A stretch of DNA of 64,000 nt from a virus. Taxonomy: Duplodnaviria; Caudoviricetes. This document shows, one piece after another, positions 9,937 through 61,521 of the stretch. The DNA lies in IMG/VR virus record IMGVR_UViG_2900261899_000001, positions 32,001 through 96,000 of that record. One strand, 5' to 3'. The notes under the pieces are model-generated. The model saw nothing but the letters and a program-made list of their open reading frames with translations, was not told where the DNA came from and did not search any database. Every line of letters starts with the position of its first letter. Within the stretch, counting starts at the first letter, position 1. The position numbers and the translations under genes were made by a program.

Positions 9937-10230
9937 ATGGGCATCCGTCGCTCATCAAGATCGATCGAGGTCTTCGTCAATGTCGGGGATGTACTCGGCG
10001 AACTGACCGACGAGGAACTAGTCGAGGAACTGAAGTCACGGCGGATCGACGACCCGAACTTGCTGGGTTGCGATCGGTCAGATGCCGAACACGCGATCGA
10101 CCTTATGCGGTCGCGACACTTCAAGGATGCGCTCACGCTCTTGGAGCGCGCCCTCTACCCGAAATTTCAGTCTCGTGACGCATGCGCAAGCGCCATCGCC
10201 GAGATCCGCTTGAGGGCGTCACACCGATGA
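9937..10230 (+). CDS. Hypothetical protein
   Basis: Coupled ORF in the early operon. Confidence 0.55.
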   Translation: MGIRRSSRSIEVFVNVGDVLGELTDEELVEELKSRRIDDPNLLGCDRSDAEHAIDLMRSRHFKDALTLLERALYPKFQSRDACASAIAEIRLRASHR

Positions 10231-31958: not shown

Positions 31959-32606
31959 TCAGCCCGGAGGCTGGCCGCGTCCTGTGTCGAGAGCGTCGAT
32001 CCGGTGCTGCTGGCGATCGTTGAAAGCCCGGATGTGCTCATCGACGGAACCGCGAAGCATGCCGACGACCCGGTCCTGGGCCTCGAAGCGGCCGGTCAGC
32101 TCCGAGCGGGAGACGACGTTGTCCTCGAGGCGCTTCAGATCGGCGGCGAGCTGGTCGTTCCGCTTCTCGGCCCGCGCCTCGACCCGAGCGATGCGATCCC
32201 GCTGAAAGTCGTAGTCCCGCTCTTGGGCCCGCCAATGCAGTTCGTGCTCGGCACGAGTGACCTGGGTCGCCGCAACCTGCTCGGTCCGCTTATCGGCCCT
32301 ATCCTGCATGACCTGAAGGGCGGTCTTCAGATCGGACATGCCGGAGGTGAGCGGCCAGAAGGCCAACCCACCGACGACGGTAAGGACCGTTATACCGACG
32401 CCGACAGCTGACCAGATCACACCCCAGGGCGTCTGGCCCCGGCGATCGAGCTTGTCGCTCAAGCCAGTGACGGCCGAGGCGACGCTCTGCAGGGTGCCGA
32501 CAATGCCCTCGACCCGTGTTTCCAGCGCCGAGAGGCGGGAGTCGGAAGTCGGCTGCATCTGTTGCTGCTGCATCTGCTGAGGATGCTGGAAGGACTGCTG
32601 GGTCAT
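31959..32606 (-). CDS. Lysis-region membrane protein with coiled coils
   Basis: One TM segment flanked by coiled coils. Confidence 0.65.
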   Translation of the reverse strand: MTQQSFQHPQQMQQQQMQPTSDSRLSALETRVEGIVGTLQSVASAVTGLSDKLDRRGQTPWGVIWSAVGVGITVLTVVGGLAFWPLTSGMSDLKTALQVMQDRADKRTEQVAATQVTRAEHELHWRAQERDYDFQRDRIARVEARAEKRNDQLAADLKRLEDNVVSRSELTGRFEAQDRVVGMLRGSVDEHIRAFNDRQQHRIDALDTGRGQPPG

Positions 32607-41713: not shown

Positions 41714-42310
41714 TCAGATCCGGCAGATGAGAGGGGCGAAGCCGGTCATGGTGAACCGGTGGAAGTTGAGGTTCGGCGGCGCGAGCAGGTCGGCGTTGAG
41801 CGCCGTCACGGCGTCGATCTGAGCTTGCAGTTCGGCGACGCGTTGATCGGTGTAGGCGGTGTCCGTCGGACCCTGCGGACCGGTGGTCAGCGCCGGCAGC
41901 ACCACGCCCGAACCGGGCTGGCCGGCCACGAGGATCTGCGTGAAGGCCGCCTGCTGCCGAACCAGGGCGCTGTCGGTGGCCGGAAGAACCCGGACCGATG
42001 ACCGCCCGAGCCATTCGTCGATCGTCGACCCCGTCACCGTCCGGTGAACGTCGAACACGAGCGTCGTCGGGGTCGAAGCGAGCCAACCCCCGCGCGCCGC
42101 CTTCGGGACCGATAGGATGAGACTGTCCGTCAGCCCGTTCGTGTCCGCGATCCAGGTGATCGCACCGTTCGCACTATCGAGCGCCACGGCCTCGGGACCG
42201 CCGAAGCTGCCTGTCATCGTGGCCGTGAGCCGCGATCCCGTCAGGTTCAGGGGAACGACGAGTGGGACAATGACCCGCCAATCCGCGGTATCGAGGCATG
42301 TAGCGGGCAT
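41714..42310 (-). CDS. Tail-associated protein; its first 15 codons match array A
   Basis: 198-aa ORF in the fibre cluster. Confidence 0.7.
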   Translation of the reverse strand: MPATCLDTADWRVIVPLVVPLNLTGSRLTATMTGSFGGPEAVALDSANGAITWIADTNGLTDSLILSVPKAARGGWLASTPTTLVFDVHRTVTGSTIDEWLGRSSVRVLPATDSALVRQQAAFTQILVAGQPGSGVVLPALTTGPQGPTDTAYTDQRVAELQAQIDAVTALNADLLAPPNLNFHRFTMTGFAPLICRI

Positions 42311-42364
42311 GGAAGACCTTCAGATCGACTTGCTCCCGCAAGGGACCGGGAATACCGTCGTGAC

Positions 42365-42483
42365 TAGCGCGGCATGGCACGGCACCGTTCGGCGTGGCAT
42401 GGCGAGGCACGGCGCGGCGAGGCTGGGTCGGGTCTGGCGTGGCGTGGTAGGGGTGAAGAGGTCGGCGTGAGCCGGCCTTTTCC
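42365..42483 (+). ncRNA. GGY-NN pentamer array A (putative guide RNA)
   Basis: TAGC, 16 pentamers at 42371-42450 (15 begin GGC/GGT), then GGGTGAAGAG-GTCGGC-GTGA-GCCGGC-CTTTTCC. Confidence 0.8.
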
Positions 42484-42614
42484 GCTTTTTGGAGCTACCG
42501 ACCGTCGTCGCCCTGCCAGAGGGCCTGATCGGCCTGTGCGGGTCTGGACATGGTGGATCTCGCATGAACGACTGCGCGGGCGCGCGGGCGAATGCACTCG
42601 ATCCGAGCGCCGCT

Positions 42615-53520: not shown

Positions 53521-53754
53521 GTGCCGACGTTAAAGCGCTTCGACCAATTCAAGATTTGCGTCTTCGCTGACGATCATCCGCCGCCGCATTTCCATGTGAT
53601 CGGGCGCGGGTTTAAGGCAACGATCTTGTTCGAGACGCTATCGCTTGATGTCGGAGAATGCCCCCGGAAGGTGTTCGCGGAGGCGGTGACTTGGGCCGCC
53701 GTGAATCGCGAAGCCCTCGAAGAAGCTTGGAGGAACCTCAATGAGCGATCGTGA
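53521..53754 (+). CDS. DUF4160 family (putative toxin)
   Basis: DHPPPHFHV. Confidence 0.85.
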   Translation: MPTLKRFDQFKICVFADDHPPPHFHVIGRGFKATILFETLSLDVGECPRKVFAEAVTWAAVNREALEEAWRNLNERS

Positions 53755-54496
53755 CATGATCCGCGCCGGGGATCCTATTCCGTCGATCGGGGCCGTAGAG
53801 GTTGGCAACGGTCCTTACGACGTCCTTATCACCTGGGCCGATGGTCATCGAGCCGGCCAGCAAATCCTCATCGACCTCGCCCCAGTGATCCTGACCTACA
53901 AGGTCTTCATTCCGTTGCGCGATGACCGCCGTCTTTTCGCAACCGTGCGCGTGGCCGAGTACGGCGAGGCCATCGAGTGGGGTGATAACGATGATCTGGC
54001 GGTCGCTGGGACGACGTTGGAGCGCCTTGCCAACGAAACGATGACCAATGTCGATTTTGCAGCATTTCTGAAGCGCAACAGGCTCACACTAGATGCCGCA
54101 GCTGGGCAGCTCGGGATCGGTCGTCGTCAGGTGTCATACTACGCCAAAGGGCGGGAGATTCCGAGATATATCTCCCTCGCTTGTAAATATATCGAAGAGC
54201 GCAAAGCAGTAGATGATATAAATAATTATTTATCTGCCGGCAACACGCTTACTAAGATAGGATTGCACAACTGTGTTATAACTGACGGGAATAACAACTT
54301 CGATTGCGTGGCTCAAGCTACCGCGGCCTGGGACAGTAATGTCGTGATTATCAAAGATGGGGGGGTGATAGAAGGCTATTATGTACCACCGGGTGAGAAA
54401 CCTGAAGTGATAGTTAAAGGCGGTACGATTAAGGTAGGTTCGGGAAATGTAACTGGCACAAGGCGTGCTAAATTAAATCTTGATAAAATTAGATAA
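53741..54496 (+). CDS. DUF2442 + HTH antitoxin with low-GC C-terminal extension
   Basis: PLRDD..FATVRV..G.AIEW; AAGQLGIGRRQVSYYAKG.EIPR. Confidence 0.8.
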   Translation: MSDRDMIRAGDPIPSIGAVEVGNGPYDVLITWADGHRAGQQILIDLAPVILTYKVFIPLRDDRRLFATVRVAEYGEAIEWGDNDDLAVAGTTLERLANETMTNVDFAAFLKRNRLTLDAAAGQLGIGRRQVSYYAKGREIPRYISLACKYIEERKAVDDINNYLSAGNTLTKIGLHNCVITDGNNNFDCVAQATAAWDSNVVIIKDGGVIEGYYVPPGEKPEVIVKGGTIKVGSGNVTGTRRAKLNLDKIR

Positions 54497-54631
54497 TAGC
54501 CATGACCGACCGATCTCTCACCGCCGGGCACCGCGATGATATTCTTCTACGCACCTTAGACGGCGATTAGAAAAGACTGAGACATTACCCATTTGGGGTA
54601 GGATGATATACTAGATTAGGATACCTCAATC

Positions 54632-54937
54632 GTGCAGCTTACAATTGAAGTGGGCGAACTTAAGGTTCTGGCGAGCGGTGTACTGCTTGTCGATTCCGGT
54701 CGAGATGTAAAGTTTACAATTGAAGGAAATGTGTTTGAGCTTATGATTGATAAAGATGGGCCGCCATATGAAAAGGTTGGCACAAATCATATTCGAGCCT
54801 ACTTTAACACTGATAAAATGGTCAGTACTAGTTCAATGATCGGCGATTATAATGGTAGGCCGTTAATGATCTCAATCCGTGTTCAGCAGCAAGGTACCCA
54901 CATTAGGCAGGTTTTTTATACACTGGGTCATCATTAA
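54632..54937 (+). CDS. Low-GC beta-rich hypothetical protein
   Basis: 101-aa ORF; TAATG coupling to next gene. Confidence 0.6.
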   Translation: MQLTIEVGELKVLASGVLLVDSGRDVKFTIEGNVFELMIDKDGPPYEKVGTNHIRAYFNTDKMVSTSSMIGDYNGRPLMISIRVQQQGTHIRQVFYTLGHH

Positions 54938-55239
54938 TGGCTGTCCGTCTAGATCTTCCGCCTGACAAAACTTTGGCAACCCGTGTAATTGAAACGGAAG
55001 CCGAGCACAATACGCGAAAACTTGAGCGCGGTTTAATGGGTTTGATCTTTGGTCTCGCCACCGAAAAACCCGGAAATATCGCTGGCTTTGCGCTGATAGC
55101 TTTCTGCCTCATGTTTGCGGGGGTTTTGATTTGGGGCACCGATAGCAGCAGTCTATCAAAGAAAGACGTACTTTCGCTTATAGGTGGTTTTATCACCTTA
55201 ACGCTCGGCTTCGTATTTGGTCGAACATCATCGTCTTAG
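54937..55239 (+). CDS. Low-GC small membrane protein
   Basis: Two TM segments; LGFVFG end. Confidence 0.65.
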   Translation: MAVRLDLPPDKTLATRVIETEAEHNTRKLERGLMGLIFGLATEKPGNIAGFALIAFCLMFAGVLIWGTDSSSLSKKDVLSLIGGFITLTLGFVFGRTSSS

Positions 55240-55276
55240 ATGTGTGGTGCAACGAAGTCATGGACATGAAGAAAAT

Positions 55277-55371
55277 GGAAAAGGCCGGCGCGAGCCAGCC
55301 CTTTCACCCTTGCCTCGCCTCAACAAACCCCGCCCCGCGGTACCCCGCCTTGGCCGGCCGTGCCTTAGCTA
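55277..55371 (-). ncRNA. GGY-NN pentamer array B (putative guide RNA)
   Basis: Minus strand: TAGC-TAA, 11 pentamers at 55364-55310 (8 GGY), then GGGTGAAAG-GGCTGGC-TCGC-GCCGGCC-TTTTCC. Confidence 0.78.
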
Positions 55372-55456
55372 GATCTCGAGCCTAGGATCGGTCCAGCGGC
55401 TGGGCAAGACAGAGGGTGTGTTTGTCCCTCCCGGTGTACGAGAGGGACGGCCGCCG

Positions 55457-57976
55457 TCAGGCTAGGACGCGACCGCCGTACCCTACCGGCGTTTTCAGCG
55501 TCGAATCGTCGAACGAACCGGTCCCGTTTCTCGTGTTCGCTTCGGCGACCTGATGGTGCGTCACGGACCGACCGACCGTGCGGCCGTCGAGATGCACCGA
55601 GCTGGCAACCTGGATCGGGGCGGAACGCCCCTTGTAGATCAGGGAGCTCGATTTGCCGGGTGTCGCACCGCCACCGCCACCGCCGCCGGACGCGCCGCTT
55701 CCGAGATCGGCGCCGCCCGCCGGTTTGGCGCTTGCGCTTCCGATCGCGGCACGAGCAGCAGCCGCTACCCCGCCGATCCAACCCGCAAGCGCGTTCAGCG
55801 GGCCGCCAGCGCCTTGCGCCGCTTGCCCCGCCTTCTGAGCGCCAGACGCAGCCTCATTGAGCGTGGAGACCGCACCAGCTGCCGTAGACGCGAGCCGCTG
55901 CTTGGCCGCTTCGATATTCTCCGTCGAAAGGCCCAGCCCTTCGGTGCCGATGTGACGCCGCGGGTTTTCACCACCGCCCGTCATGAATCCGTCGGGACCG
56001 CCGAACTCGAATGGCGTGGTACTTTTTCGGCGCTGCTCGGATAGAGTGTCGGCAAGTTTGCGAGCTGGCTCGCCTGCGATCTTATCCCACGGAAGCGTGA
56101 CGGCGGCGATGGTGACAGCCGCACCGGCACCGACAGCCAGCGCTGGAAGGCTGAGCGTGCCGACGGCGGCAATAGCTAGTGCTGCAATACCCGCAGCTGC
56201 CGCACCACCGACAACAGCGGCCGTGGCGCCCATCGCCGTCTCGGCTGCGACTGGATGCTTCTCTAGTGTGTTTGCCACGCCTCCAAGCGCTGCGTTCAAG
56301 CGGTTAAGGTTGTCGACAAGGTTTGGGATTGCTGGCTCCGAGAGTGCGGTCGCCACTGCGCCGCCCTGCGATTTGGTGCCCTGCAGAGCCGCATAGGGGT
56401 CGTCGCGCCTATAGGCCGTGGTATCGCCGGAAGTCTTATCGTACCCGGCGAAGTCTTTTTCGATCTTACTTTTTTGCTGCGCCAATTCGAACAAAAATCC
56501 GTAGGCGTTCTTGTCGGTAAAAATTTTACCGAGGGTACGAAGCAGATCGGTCTTGTCATCAGTATTGACGCCACCCGCTTTGAGCTTCGGAATGACGTTG
56601 TTGTAAAGCCATAGATCCGGGTCCTTGGCCCGGTCATAAGTTTTTCCGTCCAAGCCCACATCTGAAAATTGAGCACCCGGCTGGACTAACGTGTGTTTCT
56701 TGTTCCAAGTGACAGTTGGTTCTTGAAGAAGATTATATTTGTAGGCTTCAGTGAGCCCCGAGCCCAGCATACGCAAGCCACCGACACCCTTTGCCGCGAA
56801 GGTCGCGAACTGGGTACCGGCGCGCTGTCCAATTTCCTGCGAAAGCGCCGCGAAGGCGCCGTAGCGAAAGTGGTCGCTGGTCAGATTTAGCATCTGACCG
56901 CCGTTTTTCTGTGCGGTAAAGTAGTTCGATGGGTTGAGCTTGTCGCCGTACCAGAAGGCCAACCTCATCAGCGAGTTGGCGTGCTTCTTGACCCCCTCCG
57001 AGGTAATCTCGTTAGCTGTTTCAGCCGATTTCACGGCCGTGTAAATCTCGTTTACAGCGTTCTTAGCGCCGTGATTGCCGGCTTTGGCCTTCAGTGCCGA
57101 GAACTCTGGTAGCAATTCTGGCGCTTCGTGAATTGCTTTGTCGATGTCGCCAAGAATACCGCGGAGATCGTTGATGTGCTCGAAGATCTCGACAGGGGAT
57201 AGATTAGGAAATTGTTGCGAACCCTTATATGAAAGTTCCTTGGCATGATCGATCTGCGCTGGGCTAGCTCCGGTCTGCCGCATGCCGAGTTCAATGTGGC
57301 GCATATCGACGCCGGTCTCGATGACCTCAGAGAGCGTATGGACCCCGCCGGAGACCCCAATGACGCTTGCAAGTGCCGAGCCTTCATGGCCGACGAGACC
57401 ATGCGTTCCGTGACTGCGCCGGCCATGCCCCCTGCCACGCGTGGCGCGCCCGGCACCGGTGCCAGCGCCCCCGGCCCCGCCGCCACCCCGGACGGGCGTT
57501 GGCAAGTTCACATTGCTCGCGGCTGACTGCAGGCGACGCATGGCGCCGGCCGCCGAATTGATCCGGCTCGTCCAACCCGAGATCGACTGCGTGACACCCC
57601 GCGCCGCTGAAGCGACGCCTTGGGTCTCGCGGCGCATGACGCGCATCTCGGCGATGGGCTTGCCGATGGCGCTGGCCCAGCGCTGCATTTCACGGTCCAG
57701 ACCGTTGCCACCCTTCAAGCCAGACATGGCACGCGAGATCCGCGCGACCTCGCGCTCGATCTTTTGGCCGGCGGAGGAGGACTTCGACAGTTCGCGGTTC
57801 AGTTGGCCGGCGGCGGACGCAGCGCGGTTCAGGGGCGAGACCCAGCGACCGAACGATTTCTCAACGGATTTGGTTTTAGAGTCGACATCGCTCAGGGTCT
57901 TGAGCAGGCGCGTCATCTCGGGCACGAGATTGCCCGCGAGCGTCATGCTCGTCTGGATGCGATACACGTCGCTCAC
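55457..57976 (-). CDS. Tail tape measure protein
   Basis: 839 aa, helical and Ala/Gly-rich, VHLDGRTVG near end; position in tail operon. Confidence 0.85.
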   Translation of the reverse strand: MSDVYRIQTSMTLAGNLVPEMTRLLKTLSDVDSKTKSVEKSFGRWVSPLNRAASAAGQLNRELSKSSSAGQKIEREVARISRAMSGLKGGNGLDREMQRWASAIGKPIAEMRVMRRETQGVASAARGVTQSISGWTSRINSAAGAMRRLQSAASNVNLPTPVRGGGGAGGAGTGAGRATRGRGHGRRSHGTHGLVGHEGSALASVIGVSGGVHTLSEVIETGVDMRHIELGMRQTGASPAQIDHAKELSYKGSQQFPNLSPVEIFEHINDLRGILGDIDKAIHEAPELLPEFSALKAKAGNHGAKNAVNEIYTAVKSAETANEITSEGVKKHANSLMRLAFWYGDKLNPSNYFTAQKNGGQMLNLTSDHFRYGAFAALSQEIGQRAGTQFATFAAKGVGGLRMLGSGLTEAYKYNLLQEPTVTWNKKHTLVQPGAQFSDVGLDGKTYDRAKDPDLWLYNNVIPKLKAGGVNTDDKTDLLRTLGKIFTDKNAYGFLFELAQQKSKIEKDFAGYDKTSGDTTAYRRDDPYAALQGTKSQGGAVATALSEPAIPNLVDNLNRLNAALGGVANTLEKHPVAAETAMGATAAVVGGAAAAGIAALAIAAVGTLSLPALAVGAGAAVTIAAVTLPWDKIAGEPARKLADTLSEQRRKSTTPFEFGGPDGFMTGGGENPRRHIGTEGLGLSTENIEAAKQRLASTAAGAVSTLNEAASGAQKAGQAAQGAGGPLNALAGWIGGVAAAARAAIGSASAKPAGGADLGSGASGGGGGGGATPGKSSSLIYKGRSAPIQVASSVHLDGRTVGRSVTHHQVAEANTRNGTGSFDDSTLKTPVGYGGRVLA

Positions 57977-57997: not shown

Positions 57998-58444
57998 ATG
58001 AAGGGGTTATGGCTCGCCGTTCTTGCGGCGATCATACTGGCGCCCCCAGCGGCCGCGCAGACCCAGCAGGGCTGGGCGCAATGCCGTACCGTTGCGGACA
58101 GCCTGGAGCGGCTGAAATGCTTCGATGGTCTTGGGCCCGCGCCGGTGGCGCAGGTGGGTGCCTACGAGAAAATGACCTTGATCGATTGGAAGACCGACAA
58201 GGCATCGCTACAAGGAAAAAAGGTCGAGGTCGAAGGTCTCGCCATGCCGTTTGCCGGCGGAGCGCTGCTGTCGATCCAAGCGGGCGATGTCAGTCCGGTC
58301 TTCCTTGATGTCGAGCGCGTGCCGCGGGATCAACGCAGGCGGCTTCTAGGCTGCTCGCCTATGTGCCGATTGTCGGTGCAGGGTAGCGGTGGCACGGTAC
58401 AATATCAGCAGGGTATCATCGCCGATACTTTGAGTTTCCGCTAA
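57998..58444 (+). CDS. Secreted protein (moron)
   Basis: Signal peptide, C...D..ERL.CFD motif, OB-fold-like tail. Confidence 0.7.
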   Translation: MKGLWLAVLAAIILAPPAAAQTQQGWAQCRTVADSLERLKCFDGLGPAPVAQVGAYEKMTLIDWKTDKASLQGKKVEVEGLAMPFAGGALLSIQAGDVSPVFLDVERVPRDQRRRLLGCSPMCRLSVQGSGGTVQYQQGIIADTLSFR

Positions 58445-58521
58445 TTTATTAGTCAGACGACTAACATTAAAGTCTTAGCGGATCACCCGATGCCCTGGCT
58501 GCGGCAATGGACGGAAATGAA

Positions 58522-59028
58522 TTATCGAGGCGGAAACAACAAAAGCGTCAAAAAGGCCGTTTTGCTATCTTCGCTAGCGGCCTCAAGCCCGGTCAACGCC
58601 GACTTTGCAATAAGAATAAAGTGCTCGACTTCTGACACAGTTAAGACGTGTGATGGGTCATAATCGGCTAGCATACGCTGTTCATATAGGTCAATAAATG
58701 CGTCGGCGTACCCGGTTATTTGCGCATCAAATCCGCCTGCCGGCCAATACCTGCTGTATTTCTGGCTTGGATTCTGCTTTTTTATTTCAACACAAAGAGA
58801 CCTCATTTTGCCGTGATCTATTGATCTGTAAGCCAAGCTATAAAGGCTGCTGCCTCTTTTATCCTCTCCGACGGACTGGTCGGCGGCCGCCTTCAGACCG
58901 GCATGGAACACGGCATAATAGGTAGCCGATACTGCTCTACATCTGTCAGCCAAGCGCGGTCGTTCCTGCCCAGGCAGCACAGCGAGCAGGCGTTCGGCCT
59001 GCTCAACCAAATGTGCGGGTTCGATCAC
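58522..59028 (-). CDS. HEPN (UPF0332-like) protein
   Basis: RAVSATYYAVFH, RMLADYDP. Confidence 0.75.
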   Translation of the reverse strand: MIEPAHLVEQAERLLAVLPGQERPRLADRCRAVSATYYAVFHAGLKAAADQSVGEDKRGSSLYSLAYRSIDHGKMRSLCVEIKKQNPSQKYSRYWPAGGFDAQITGYADAFIDLYEQRMLADYDPSHVLTVSEVEHFILIAKSALTGLEAASEDSKTAFLTLLLFPPR

Positions 59029-59317
59029 GCTGAAGCTCTATCCAATCTTCCATTCGGGCAAAGCTAACTAGTGGCACACGGTCCTCACCGGCCCTGTGTA
59101 ACTCGCTTTTCATCCTACTGATGATATTGAGCAGTTGTGTTCCTCCAAAGTCGTCGGCGTTTGCCTCTGGGTACACAATAGTTATTTTGAGCGCATCGGA
59201 CCCATCGGATGTTTGAGCGCCCGCTATTGCTGTCGATATTGGGACAAACTTACCCAAAACATCCCGAGATGTTTCCTTCGCCAGTCTTGATATTTCACCT
59301 AAATCTAGCCGCATCAC
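59003..59317 (-). CDS. HEPN partner (MNT-like)
   Basis: Overlaps the HEPN gene; DGSDALKITIV, P.VSF. Confidence 0.55.
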   Translation of the reverse strand: MMRLDLGEISRLAKETSRDVLGKFVPISTAIAGAQTSDGSDALKITIVYPEANADDFGGTQLLNIISRMKSELHRAGEDRVPLVSFARMEDWIELQRDRTRTFG

Positions 59318-59325
59318 CGCATGCC

Positions 59326-59580
59326 TCAGCCCTGTATTCCCAGGACGGGCGCCTTCAGCCGGACGCCCGGCCCCCCGCCGTTCTCTGCGATGAACTCGAG
59401 CCCAGCCTCCGCAAGCGCTTTCTCAACCTTTGCCAGATTGTCGGTGATAGCCTTGGGAACCCCCTCGCTCTCCTCCATCCGTTTGATTGTTGCGGGGGAC
59501 ACCCCAGAGGTATCCGCTAAATCCCTTACGGACCACCGAAGGTAGCCGCGTGCCATCCGAATCTGGGCCCCGGTGACCAT
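59326..59580 (-). CDS. XRE HTH repressor
   Basis: TGAQIRMARGYLRWSVRDLA..SGVS..TIKRME, ENGGGPGVRL. Confidence 0.88.
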   Translation of the reverse strand: MVTGAQIRMARGYLRWSVRDLADTSGVSPATIKRMEESEGVPKAITDNLAKVEKALAEAGLEFIAENGGGPGVRLKAPVLGIQG

Positions 59581-59611
59581 AAAAGCTAAATGACCCATAT
59601 TTGGTCTAGCG

Positions 59612-59659
59612 TGAGCTAAATTGGTTGACACGGGCGCCTCCATGAGCCAATTTAGCTCA
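59612..59659. promoter_or_regulatory. Operator pair and promoter of the cassette leading to HNH + RAMP-like gene
   Basis: TGAGCTAAATTGGTTGA (59612-59628) and inverted near-copy TGAGCCAATTTAGCTCA (59643-59659); TTGACA 59625-59630. Confidence 0.65.
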
Positions 59660-60051
59660 TGGCCGCTGCAAATGAAAGCGACCTTACCACTAAGAGGATC
59701 GCGCCGATGCCCGTGAATGCAAAGATCCCCACCCCCCTGCGCGCAAACATCATGGCCAGGGCCTGGGAGTTATTCCGCAAGCGCTACAATTACCCCCGCA
59801 CCCCGTTCCGTTCGATCGGCCGCGCATGTTTCGCGTCGGCTCTAAAAGCCGCGTGGGCGGAAGCCCGTGAGACTGTTCGTCTTGTCGGTTTCGGGGCCGA
59901 TGCCCTGAGGCGCTCTATCGAGGCACTTTCCTCTCCGGCTCACGCGGTAGGCCTTTCCTCAAGCTACGCGCTTGGCCCTCAGGCCGCGATGGAGCGGTAT
60001 CAACAAAAGCTCGCTTTAACGGCCGCCCTGAACTTCGCGATTGCGGCTTGA
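59659..60051 (+). CDS. Hypothetical protein
   Basis: IMARAW...FASALKAAWAEA. Confidence 0.6.
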   Translation: MAAANESDLTTKRIAPMPVNAKIPTPLRANIMARAWELFRKRYNYPRTPFRSIGRACFASALKAAWAEARETVRLVGFGADALRRSIEALSSPAHAVGLSSSYALGPQAAMERYQQKLALTAALNFAIAA

Positions 60052-60062
60052 GGGAGGGAGCT

Positions 60063-60560
60063 ATGCAAAATCGGAGAGCAATCCTCACGGCCCTTATTGC
60101 GGTACCGCTGACTGGGCCGTTGTGTGCGGGTCAGCCTCATCTTGACGCGGCCCTGCTCGACCTCGGCAGGCGCTTCGATGCCGCCGTGGCGGCGCACAAA
60201 GCCCACGTCCGGGCCTACTTCGCGGCTGACGAGGCCCATACCCAGGCGCTCCAGGCCGCTAAGTCGGCTGGGCGGTTCAAGGGGCTCGACGCTGAAGCCT
60301 ACGCAGCGCTCCACTCGCAGCTAATTGAGCCGTTCAACGCGGCGCTAGAGAGGGACGACGAACTCCACGACGCCTGCGGCAAGCTGGGCGAGCAAATCAT
60401 CGCGATCCAACCCAAGACTCTGGATGGAATCGCTGTTCTTGCCCGTGTCTGCCAGTTCGAATCGCGGCAGGCCTGGGAAGCGCCGAAGAGCCGCGAGTAC
60501 GATGAGGACGTCCTCGTTGCCCTCGTCGACGGCATCTTGGCCGTGGCCGCTACGGCGTGA
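60063..60560 (+). CDS. Hypothetical helical protein
   Basis: GGAG RBS; DAALLDLG, PKTLDGI.V.AR. Confidence 0.65.
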   Translation: MQNRRAILTALIAVPLTGPLCAGQPHLDAALLDLGRRFDAAVAAHKAHVRAYFAADEAHTQALQAAKSAGRFKGLDAEAYAALHSQLIEPFNAALERDDELHDACGKLGEQIIAIQPKTLDGIAVLARVCQFESRQAWEAPKSREYDEDVLVALVDGILAVAATA

Positions 60561-61000
60561 CCTACGAGGAATACCTTGCATCCCCACGATGGGCCGAGCT
60601 GCGCCGGCTGAGGCTAGCCCTCGACGGATTCCGCTGCCGGGGCTGCGATACCGCCGACAATCTTGAGGTTCACCACCGGCGCTACGGCACCCCGCTGGGC
60701 AGCGAGACGGTCGACGACCTGACGACGCTCTGTGGCGGCCCCGAGGGCTGCCACCACGCGATCACCACCATCATCCGCCGCCGCCTGTACGCGACCCGTC
60801 AGTATGACGTGACCGCAGTCGCTCGGCTGGCCCCCGGCAATCTGGAGAAGAACGATGTCCCAGGACTACGAGCGTTTAAGATTTCGGCTCACCGGCGTGT
60901 CGCCCCTGGTCATGCACAACGGTCGCTTGGCGAACCCGCTGGACTCGTTTGCGAAGGCGCTGAAGGCGGTCTCGGGAAAGCGCGGCAAGACGGACGCTGA
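60557..61000 (+). CDS. HNH endonuclease
   Basis: YEEYLASPRW, CRGC...LEVHHRRY...LTTLC....CH. Confidence 0.85.
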   Translation: MTYEEYLASPRWAELRRLRLALDGFRCRGCDTADNLEVHHRRYGTPLGSETVDDLTTLCGGPEGCHHAITTIIRRRLYATRQYDVTAVARLAPGNLEKNDVPGLRAFKISAHRRVAPGHAQRSLGEPAGLVCEGAEGGLGKARQDGR

Positions 61001-61430
61001 CTTCGAGGAGATGGCCCGTATCGAGTTCCTGGGCGGCCTCTATGTCGGCGACGATGGTCCTTGCATCCCCGGCGAATTGATCGAAGCGGTCCTGATCGCG
61101 GCGGCCAAAAAGAACAAGCGCGGCATGCAGGCCAAGGCCGGCATCCTTTCGGACGGCAACCACCGGGTCGAGTACCACGGCCCCAGAGGGGCAGAGGAGC
61201 TGTGGGCGGACGACCGCTTCCGCCTCGTTGCCGGCGTTCGTGTCGGACAGGCCCGTGTGATGCGGACCCGCCCGATCTTTCGGGAGTGGTCGTCAGAAAT
61301 CTTCGTTGACTTCCTGCCGGGTCAATTGAACCGGGCGGACGTCGCGGGAATGGTTAGAACCGCAGGCACCATCGTCGGCATCGGCGATTGGAGGCCGCGG
61401 TTTGGAAGGTTCACAGTGGAGACGCTGTGA
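60855..61430 (+). CDS. Stand-alone RAMP/Cas7-like protein
   Basis: LTGVSPLVMH start, PCIPGELIEAVL, Gly-rich C-terminal loop GIGDWRPRFGRF; GGAG RBS at 60844. Confidence 0.7.
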   Translation: MSQDYERLRFRLTGVSPLVMHNGRLANPLDSFAKALKAVSGKRGKTDADFEEMARIEFLGGLYVGDDGPCIPGELIEAVLIAAAKKNKRGMQAKAGILSDGNHRVEYHGPRGAEELWADDRFRLVAGVRVGQARVMRTRPIFREWSSEIFVDFLPGQLNRADVAGMVRTAGTIVGIGDWRPRFGRFTVETL

Positions 61431-61521
61431 TAGCCCGGTAGGGCAAGGCGGGTCGCGGCATGCCTCGGCAAGGCGTGGTTCGGTAGGGGTGAAAAGGGCC
61501 GGCTTTCGCCGGCCCTTTTCC
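61431..61521 (+). ncRNA. GGY-NN pentamer array C (putative guide RNA) with terminator hairpin
   Basis: TAGC, 10 pentamers at 61437-61486 (8 GGY), then GGGTGAAAAGGGCCGGC-TTTC-GCCGGCCCTTTTCC. Confidence 0.8.

Follow-up and report, generated by a model that had tools for sequence, protein, structure and literature searches.

A 64,000-nucleotide stretch of a Caudoviricetes prophage (IMG/VR record IMGVR_UViG_2900261899_000001, positions 32,001 to 96,000; hereafter the window) contains a short pentameric array, array B, that is likely the guide RNA (vrRNA) of a VIPR (Viral Interference Programmable Repeat) system aimed at the tape-measure alleles of rival phages. We assign array B to the vrRNAs because the window encodes a homolog of the Vipr protein, because the contact residues of this homolog are conserved and because the array has the GGY/NN architecture of these RNAs. 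The VIPR principle itself was already published in 2026, and what the present locus adds is a dispersed, target-adjacent layout of guides and a borderline self-match.

VIPR is described in three preprints (bioRxiv 10.64898/2026.04.26.720920, 10.64898/2026.04.26.720927 and 10.64898/2026.10.15.759431; together the VIPR preprints) as the combination of Vipr, a minimal RAMP-fold phage protein, with a vrRNA of 9-16 YNNGG/GGYNN pentamers that has a conserved GGY, a variable NN and a constant 3' tail. In these accounts, one Vipr protomer covers each 5-nt repeat, burying GGY and presenting NN, and the filament binds double-stranded DNA in such a way that NN pairs with two of every three bases and the third, mostly a codon wobble position, is skipped. 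Targets are reported on either strand, without a protospacer-adjacent motif and with a match threshold of 80%, and the systems are described as silencing rival phages and satellites at the level of transcription (VIPR preprints).

Array B matches the 3' end of the adjacent tape-measure gene

The repeat tract of array B occupies positions 55310-55366 on the minus strand of the window and reads tagct-AA-GGC-AC-GGC-CG-GCC-AA-GGC-GG-GGT-AC-CGC-GG-GGC-GG-GGT-TT-GTT-GA-GGC-GA-GGC-AA-GGGTGAA. Its spacers are GGY, three of them in degenerate form (GCC, CGC and GTT). A GGYNN caller finds 11 units at 55364-55310, and addition of the NN that precedes the first GGY yields a series of 12 dinucleotides (AA AC CG AA GG AC GG GG TT GA GA AA). 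The 3' tail (55268-55309) consists of GGGTGAA, a hairpin of 12 pairs and a T run, in that order, with an intrinsic-terminator-like site called at 55305-55278; the same tail module closes two further arrays in the window, A and C. Array B lies directly 3' of the stop codon of an 839-aa open reading frame (ORF) on the same strand (55457-57976). This ORF is probably the tape-measure gene: it has a weak match to the tape-measure family phrog_28 (E 1.2e-4), was without a match in Pfam and NCBIfam searches, and is located upstream of the baseplate hub, V and J genes.

Read as NNx, that is, as dinucleotides separated by one skipped base, guide B has a near-cognate site in this ORF at 55502-55537 (minus strand). 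The site covers tape-measure codons 814-825 (NTRNGTGSFDDS), which read AAC ACG AGA AAC GGG ACC GGT TCG TTC GAC GAT TCG from 55537 to 55502, in frame and with the wobble bases at the skipped positions. Agreement extends to 9 of 11 dinucleotides, or 19 of 22 bases (19 of 24 when all 12 units are counted), at a distance of 140 bp from the guide. When the 12-unit guide was compared with both strands of its own genome (4,636,856 bases), a score of 19/24 was reached at this position only, 18 once and 17 at sixteen positions. Base-shuffled guides did not reach the score in 5000 trials within 500 nt on either side of the array; across the whole 64-kb window they reached it in 3 of 500 trials with 12 units and in none of 500 with 11 units. 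When the dinucleotides were shuffled in order instead, 2 of 200 trials produced the score at some position of the window.

A sequence-only reading of this DNA had proposed the wobble-skipping match between array B and the tape-measure gene, and our analysis bears it out as a real match whose best site is unique genome-wide. The equal-base estimate given then (about 1e-9 per position) agrees in order of magnitude with the recomputed value (7e-10), and the shuffle test that it called for favours the match in the vicinity of the array. The guide RNA that it described, with codon positions 1-2 read and the wobble base passed over, corresponds to the published VIPR 1-nt skip rule (VIPR preprints), and a Vipr homolog is encoded in the window. 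Three codons distinguish the resident site from the guide: AGA stands in place of CGN, which is synonymous, TCG in place of GGN and TCG in place of AAC. The same reading had expected AGA to be rare, as it proves to be: 6 of 315 Arg codons across 14 prophage ORFs are AGA, and codon 816, at the guide B site, is the sole AGA among the 47 Arg codons of the tape-measure gene.

The window encodes a Vipr homolog

The vipr gene (60855-61430, plus strand) encodes a 191-aa RAMP-like protein, a putative coat of the vrRNA, with matches to PDB 36pp_D and to phrog_4652 (E 1e-52). A profile built from 48 vipr homologs matches one solved structure, PDB 36pp chain D, the 'SUSP1 Vipr protein' (E 5.4e-46, over 183 of 189 positions). 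The single window sequence also matches SUSP1 Vipr (E 1.2e-31), with the functional residues aligned. By a correspondence counted by hand on the printed alignment, SUSP1 H17, K33, R39, E71, K82, R138, D177, W178 and R179 pair with window H21, K37, R43, E74, K85, R139, D178, W179 and R180. The aligned SUSP1 residues are described as holding G1, G2 and Y3 of GGY and the DNA strands (VIPR preprints). Among the 48 homologs, W179, R180 and R139 are invariant and H21, R43, E74 and D178 nearly so; SUSP1 K88 pairs with window M91 and is thus not conserved. A search with the window protein returned 1112 homologs, with 'hypothetical protein' as every source-given name among the matches listed, and no Pfam, PADLOC or NCBIfam family, Cas models included, matched it.

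Directly upstream of vipr, and overlapping it by 146 nt in a different frame, is a 147-aa HNH-like ORF (60557-61000, plus strand) with matches to PHROG HNH endonuclease families (E 1.3e-6) and, far below the cut-off, to an NCBIfam IscB HNH region (E 1.1e-4). We regard this ORF, from its sequence and position, as a candidate vap (vipr-accessory) gene. Of 80 related IMG/VR loci, 49 have a homolog immediately 5' of vipr, and there the full-length homologs (~147 aa) begin about 300 nt ahead of vipr. The overlap thus seems to be conserved, and the two ORFs may be a real overlapping gene pair. None of the 8 ORFs around the arrays matched PADLOC, and the weak IscB HNH match was the sole one from NCBIfam.

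The same genome carries a second vipr gene elsewhere (locus L154, contig C2:132842-133480) that is 42% identical to the window gene (E 1.3e-45). Immediately after it comes a GGY/NN array that begins within the last codons of the gene and undergoes a 1-nt register shift after the third unit. The tail of that array is unlike those of the window arrays and is accompanied by a long hairpin.

Sister species carry the predicted target allele

Allowing up to 3 mismatches in 24, the guide B pattern was found in 2 of 146 genomes of the genus, G457 and G478, and in both cases the match falls on the homologous tape-measure codons, in frame (DTRNGTQGFDDN and DTRNGTGGFDSN). A reversed-pattern control gave no match in the same 146 genomes, 8 of which encode homologs of the tape-measure C-terminus by protein search. 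At both sister-species sites Arg is encoded by CGC, unit 8 reads GGC and unit 12 reads AAC. Vipr is absent from G478 and encoded on another contig in G457.

How far the relatives outscore the resident site depends on which units are counted. Identity to the guide over all 12 units is 0.88 (21/24) in G457 and G478 and 0.79 at the resident site; over units 2-12, the strict GGYNN call, the values are 0.91 and 0.77; and over units 1-11, the set used in the sequence-only reading, they are equal at 0.86 (19/22). The closest tape-measure protein relative, at 61% identity and with the source-given name Methylobacterium sp. J-059, reads NTRNGTGLFDDN, and guide B itself spells N/K-T-R-N/K-G-T-G-G-F-D/E-D/E-N/K. 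Comparison of the alleles, including that of this closest relative, thus indicates that guide B represents the consensus of the known alleles. A search for related tape-measure C-terminal loci in viral contigs gave 35 pattern matches, none of which was confirmed, and a protein search with residues 700-839 recovered only the query itself and one relative among 8000 scored candidates.

Arrays A and C share the tail of array B

A period-5 scan of the window identified the two further arrays. Array A (42369-42492, plus strand) has 16-17 units, the tail and a terminator, and is antisense to the flanking tail-fibre genes; array C (61437-61521, plus strand) has 10-11 units, the tail and a hairpin, and begins immediately 3' of the vipr stop codon. 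The GGYNN caller assigns 16, 11 and 10 units to A, B and C, respectively, or 17, 12 and 11 when the NN before the first GGY is counted. The NN series of the three arrays are wholly different. All three close with A[AG]GGGTGAA and a hairpin, as do 6 arrays from IMG/VR and a metagenome-assembled genome; no other array in the 4.64-Mb assembly has this tail. Terminator-like sites were called for arrays A and B and, by the T-run rule, none for C. Rfam at gathering thresholds gave no match in the whole window, which places the arrays outside the curated RNA families. A scan for sigma-70-like promoters near the three arrays found no sites; boxes were seen by eye only upstream of B (TTGCCC-N17-TAGGCT) and A (TTGCTC-N17-TACCGT).

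Guide A behaves much like guide B. Its near-cognate site (42263-42313, minus strand) comprises the start codon and the first 16 codons of ORF 41714-42310 (MPATCLDTADWRVIVP). This is the best match of guide A in the window (23/34), lying 60 nt from the array on the opposite strand, in frame and with six consecutive exact dinucleotides. Genome-wide the score ties with two further positions, and in the local flank shuffled guides reached it in 1 of 5000 trials. Homologs of ORF 41714-42310 are encoded in 12 of the 146 genus genomes, where guide A scores up to 27/34 at the homologous site, or 26/30 without the end units, compared with 23/34 or 22/30 at the resident site. Expressed as identity, the resident site has 0.68-0.73 and the loci of the 12 relatives up to 0.79-0.87. 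No site with up to 3 mismatches in 34 was found for guide A in the 146 genomes.

We also scanned for the tail pattern more widely, which gave at least 120 stretches in genome contigs and 6 in viral contigs (at least 126 in all), and only four of them (L017, L122, L125 and L126) proved to be true arrays. Many of the other stretches share the string GGTAAGGGTGAAAGG and look like what we take to be RNase P RNA. In these genes, which we presume to be RNase-P-RNA-like from the flanking motifs GTGCCACAGAAA...GGTAAGAGCGCACC, the tail string appears as GGY-AAGGGTGAAAGG. Such loci include L002, L018, L020, L021, L027, L042, L071, L079, L085, L098 and L102, among others, and the shared string is probably a coincidence forced by the search pattern. 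A separate array scan of the genus matched 32 of 146 genomes, and none of the 16 contexts inspected was an array, the sole real array called there being array A of the window itself. Other identities considered for the arrays were a binding site for a TRAP-like ring protein, two-tier G-quadruplexes, a reading frame of quintuplets that stops at the conserved TGA and the template of a diversity-generating retroelement, all of which were dropped on the Vipr homology.

Guides A and B are dispersed and adjacent to their near-cognate sites

We surveyed 81 loci, namely the window and 80 IMG/VR loci with this Vipr clade (flanks of up to 10 kb), in which 194 arrays were called. Of these, 185 lie less than 1 kb from vipr, 7 at 1-3 kb and 2 beyond. 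The two distant arrays are A (18.4 kb) and B (5.5 kb) of the window, and all 191 arrays of the 80 other loci are within 3 kb. Many of the surveyed loci have short flanks, so dispersal elsewhere is a lower bound.

Adjacency of a guide to its best match is a recurrent feature of these loci. Of 135 distinct guides, 11 have a unique locus-wide best match no more than 300 nt away, where the number expected was at most 4.6 (simulated P 0.006). The margin is wide in L203 (24 vs 17 of 30), L237 (28 vs 23 of 40) and the L258 group (18 vs 15 of 24), in all of which the sites are in frame in neighbouring ORFs. For the window, the near fractions from this survey put the chance of a flanking best match for both A and B at about 0.009 x 0.009. 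None of the 160 guides with at least 10 units in the 81 loci has an own-locus match of 0.85 or more.

Several observations accompany this survey. In L203 (10749-11140), L237 (10981-11307) and L258 (3845-4010), as in L261, L262, L267 and L273, the guide concerned is the last vrRNA of a cluster and the site is in the next ORF. Sites of this type lie 70-270 nt away, with 0.70-0.80 identity and up to 9-10 consecutive exact dinucleotides. The ORF beside the L261 array has no detectable kinship with window ORF 41714-42310 (BLASTP E 1.5). A guide of IMG/VR locus L213 matches window positions 10024-10053 (plus strand) at 17/20 (0.85), which may be chance given its 10 units and a 64-kb search space.

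We did not find a dispersed, target-adjacent layout in the VIPR preprint text, and the supplementary tables (664-667 loci) may cover it. The main text of 10.64898/2026.04.26.720920 does not use the words 'dispersed', 'distal' or 'orphan', nor 'Methylobacter' or 'Alphaproteobacteria'.

The surroundings of array B have unusual features of their own. Between vrRNA B and the baseplate genes is a low-GC island (53700-55240; 0.46 vs 0.66 for the window) with ORFs at 53741-54496 (plus) and at 54903-55196 (minus) or 54937-55239 (plus), none of which matched Pfam, PHROG, PADLOC or NCBIfam. The island has the look of cargo inserted next to the vrRNA. The region directly upstream of the tape measure (58000-60100) contains a weak HEPN-like ORF (58522-59028), an HTH repressor-like ORF (59326-59643) and divergent early-type genes instead of genes for a tail tube or sheath, and the prophage may be a mosaic or have undergone rearrangement.

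Weighing the interpretations

Several results weigh against a guide that targets rivals and spares its own genome. With 11 units, the resident tape-measure site equals those of the relatives and exceeds the published threshold of 0.8, so that by score alone it would be a self-target. The relatives' advantage hangs on unit 12, the NN of which is AA or AG in all 9 parsed arrays of this tail type; this unit may be part of the tail and not of the guide. The VIPR preprint text gives neither the mismatch tolerance nor a seed region. The tape-measure C-terminus was compared in 3 DNA relatives and 1 protein relative. An exact 11-unit target of guide B was found in neither viral nor metagenome contigs (0 in each), and the 12-unit guide with up to 3 mismatches had no match in 401 genomes of the family, 18 of them in the genus. 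Guide A attains 0.8 only when its end units are dropped, and guide C has no convincing target, its best own-genome match (18/22, in a host glycosyltransferase-like ORF) being judged chance.

These results qualify two further claims of the sequence-only reading. It had proposed that the guide targets the allele of related phages, and the homologous sites in two sister-species prophages agree with this; the perfect gapped match that it expected in relatives, and whose absence it had named as counting against it, was literally not found in viral or metagenome contigs, although the threshold in print is 80% and not 100%. It had also proposed that the resident copy escapes through changes at positions 1-2. 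The resident score is lower when unit 12 is counted and equal (19/22) when it is not, and from the sequence we lean only slightly towards escape of the resident copy. Pairing of unit 12 would decide whether guide B tells self from rival, as we infer it does.

An alternative is that the resident sites are deliberately imperfect operators through which the phage's own Vipr-vrRNA damps or times its tail genes, for example keeping them off in the lysogen, with vrRNA B acting at the 3' end of the tape measure and vrRNA A at the start of ORF 41714-42310. The resident identity of 0.86 over units 1-11, above the published 0.8, would allow this, site A spans a start codon and is well positioned for a transcriptional roadblock, and adjacent near-cognate sites recur beyond expectation (11/135 guides vs at most 4.6, P 0.006). 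Site B, at the 3' end of its gene, is poorly positioned for control, both guides match relatives better than self, and the AGA at the site, rare and synonymous, suggests that pairing is avoided rather than maintained. For the clades tested in 10.64898/2026.04.26.720920, moreover, no self matches of 80% or more are reported on source contigs. We consider self-regulation unlikely.

The adjacency could instead record how the guides arose, if they were born in cis from or with neighbouring coding sequence, through a local process or recombination with a relative, and the match is a decayed trace of that origin. This idea is compatible with a guide now aimed at rivals. It would account for the location of both distal guides within 150 bp of their best genome-wide matches and for the same adjacency in the unrelated IMG/VR loci L203 (24/30), L237 (28/40) and the L258 group (18/24), and the VIPR preprint text describes no guide acquisition machinery. 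Set against this, 124 of 135 guides lack such adjacency, linkage by selection explains the same data, and the mismatches do not resemble random decay, one of them being a rare synonymous first-position change. We know of no mechanism that turns a 3-periodic sequence into a 5-periodic one, which also counts against birth in cis, and we regard it as quite improbable.

Lastly, array B could be a vrRNA, or a mere G-rich 3' untranslated region, that resembles the tape-measure gene by chance helped by codon and composition bias. Codon positions 1-2 are purine-rich in this 66% GC genome, as is the NN set, dinucleotide-order shuffles did reach the score in the window (2/200), and a decoding scheme could be chosen after looking. 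The scheme used here is the experimentally established one (VIPR preprints), however, and the site is the unique best on both strands of 4.64 Mb, 140 bp away, with 0 of 5000 local shuffles reaching its score. Of 146 genomes, two relatives are matched, both at this same site and nowhere else, and a second guide (A) behaves alike. Coincidence is accordingly very remote, and a vrRNA directed at the tape-measure alleles of rivals is the reading that we adopt.

Relation to known systems

The locus shares with published VIPR systems a Vipr homolog with conserved contact residues, GGY/NN pentamers (10-17 units), a 3' tail common to its arrays, an NNx match with a 1-nt skip on codon positions 1-2, a predicted target in a rival phage, carriage by a prophage and a small candidate accessory gene adjoining vipr. 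It differs in the location of vrRNAs B and A, which are 5.5 and 18.4 kb from vipr, within the tail-gene module, and each less than 150 bp from its own near-cognate site. In place of satellites or lysis-lysogeny regulators, the targets predicted here are structural tail genes of relatives, and the candidate vap is HNH-like, upstream of vipr and overlapping it. The tail looks, by sequence, like a plain A-tract hairpin terminator; for the vrRNA tail of the SUSP1 clade a pseudoknot is described (VIPR preprints). The host is an alphaproteobacterium, and homolog names point to Methylobacterium.

The solo or orphan vrRNAs that 10.64898/2026.10.15.759431 describes for satellites and for VIPR-null phages likewise stand alone, at a distance from any vipr gene, and that text describes other vrRNAs with a self-match below the rival match. 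Here, the phage keeps its own vipr, the guides are in a structural module and not in a former VIPR locus or satellite, and the near-cognate sites are neighbouring tail genes as opposed to vrRNA or vipr sequences. The crRNA-Cas7 filaments of class 1 CRISPR-Cas systems also have a RAMP-fold backbone that coats the guide and a thumb that breaks the duplex at fixed intervals (VIPR preprints). Their period is 6 nt of guide per 6 nt of target, compared with 5 nt of guide (3 buried) per 3 nt of target (1 skipped) in VIPR, and the present locus lacks a CRISPR array, cas1/cas2 and spacer acquisition. A tandem-repeat scan of the window found no CRISPR repeat-spacer array, and the Cas models of PADLOC and NCBIfam matched neither vipr nor its neighbours.

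A further parallel is offered by homing-endonuclease and marker-exclusion cassettes, in which a weapon adjoins the immune allele of its own target and the pair spreads by recombination. The likeness is in the linkage of a sequence-specific weapon to a resistant variant of the target. In the present case the weapon would be a guide RNA that serves a trans-acting protein whose gene lies elsewhere in the phage.

Proposed mechanism and implications

We propose that vrRNA B is probably transcribed from its own promoter, ended by its own hairpin and coated by Vipr. In relatives that enter the cell or already reside in it, the filament would bind the 3' region of the tape-measure gene, where guide B would be aimed at the conserved C-terminal motif [D/N]-T-R-N-G-T-G-G-F-D-D-N, and would thereby block late tail-gene expression. 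Cutting of the bound DNA might follow if the HNH-like neighbour has nuclease activity. Through drift or selection, the resident copy would have departed from the guide at three codons, sparing self. Guide A would repeat this pattern at the 5' end of a tail-module gene. Because the guide and the spared allele are adjacent, they would be inherited together when related phages recombine. More generally, and tentatively, since on balance we are inclined to doubt it, some VIPR temperate phages may scatter vrRNAs in structural modules beside their own recoded immune sites, forming a linked 'weapon plus antidote' cassette.

The sequence-only reading re-derived the non-contiguous VIPR recognition code from raw sequence alone, and the locus provides a clear natural example of that code in an alphaproteobacterial prophage, with the predicted target allele in two sister-species genomes. 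Its borderline self-match and rare synonymous first-position change make it a test case for self/rival discrimination and mismatch tolerance in VIPR. Surveys centred on vipr would miss guides that are distant from it, and such distant, target-adjacent guides may inform how guides are kept or born. If the cassette proposal is true, the cassette would travel by recombination between related phages and drive the replacement of tail-gene alleles. A bolder version, if true, is that the adjacency records the birth of guides in cis, which would bear on how guides are acquired without Cas1.

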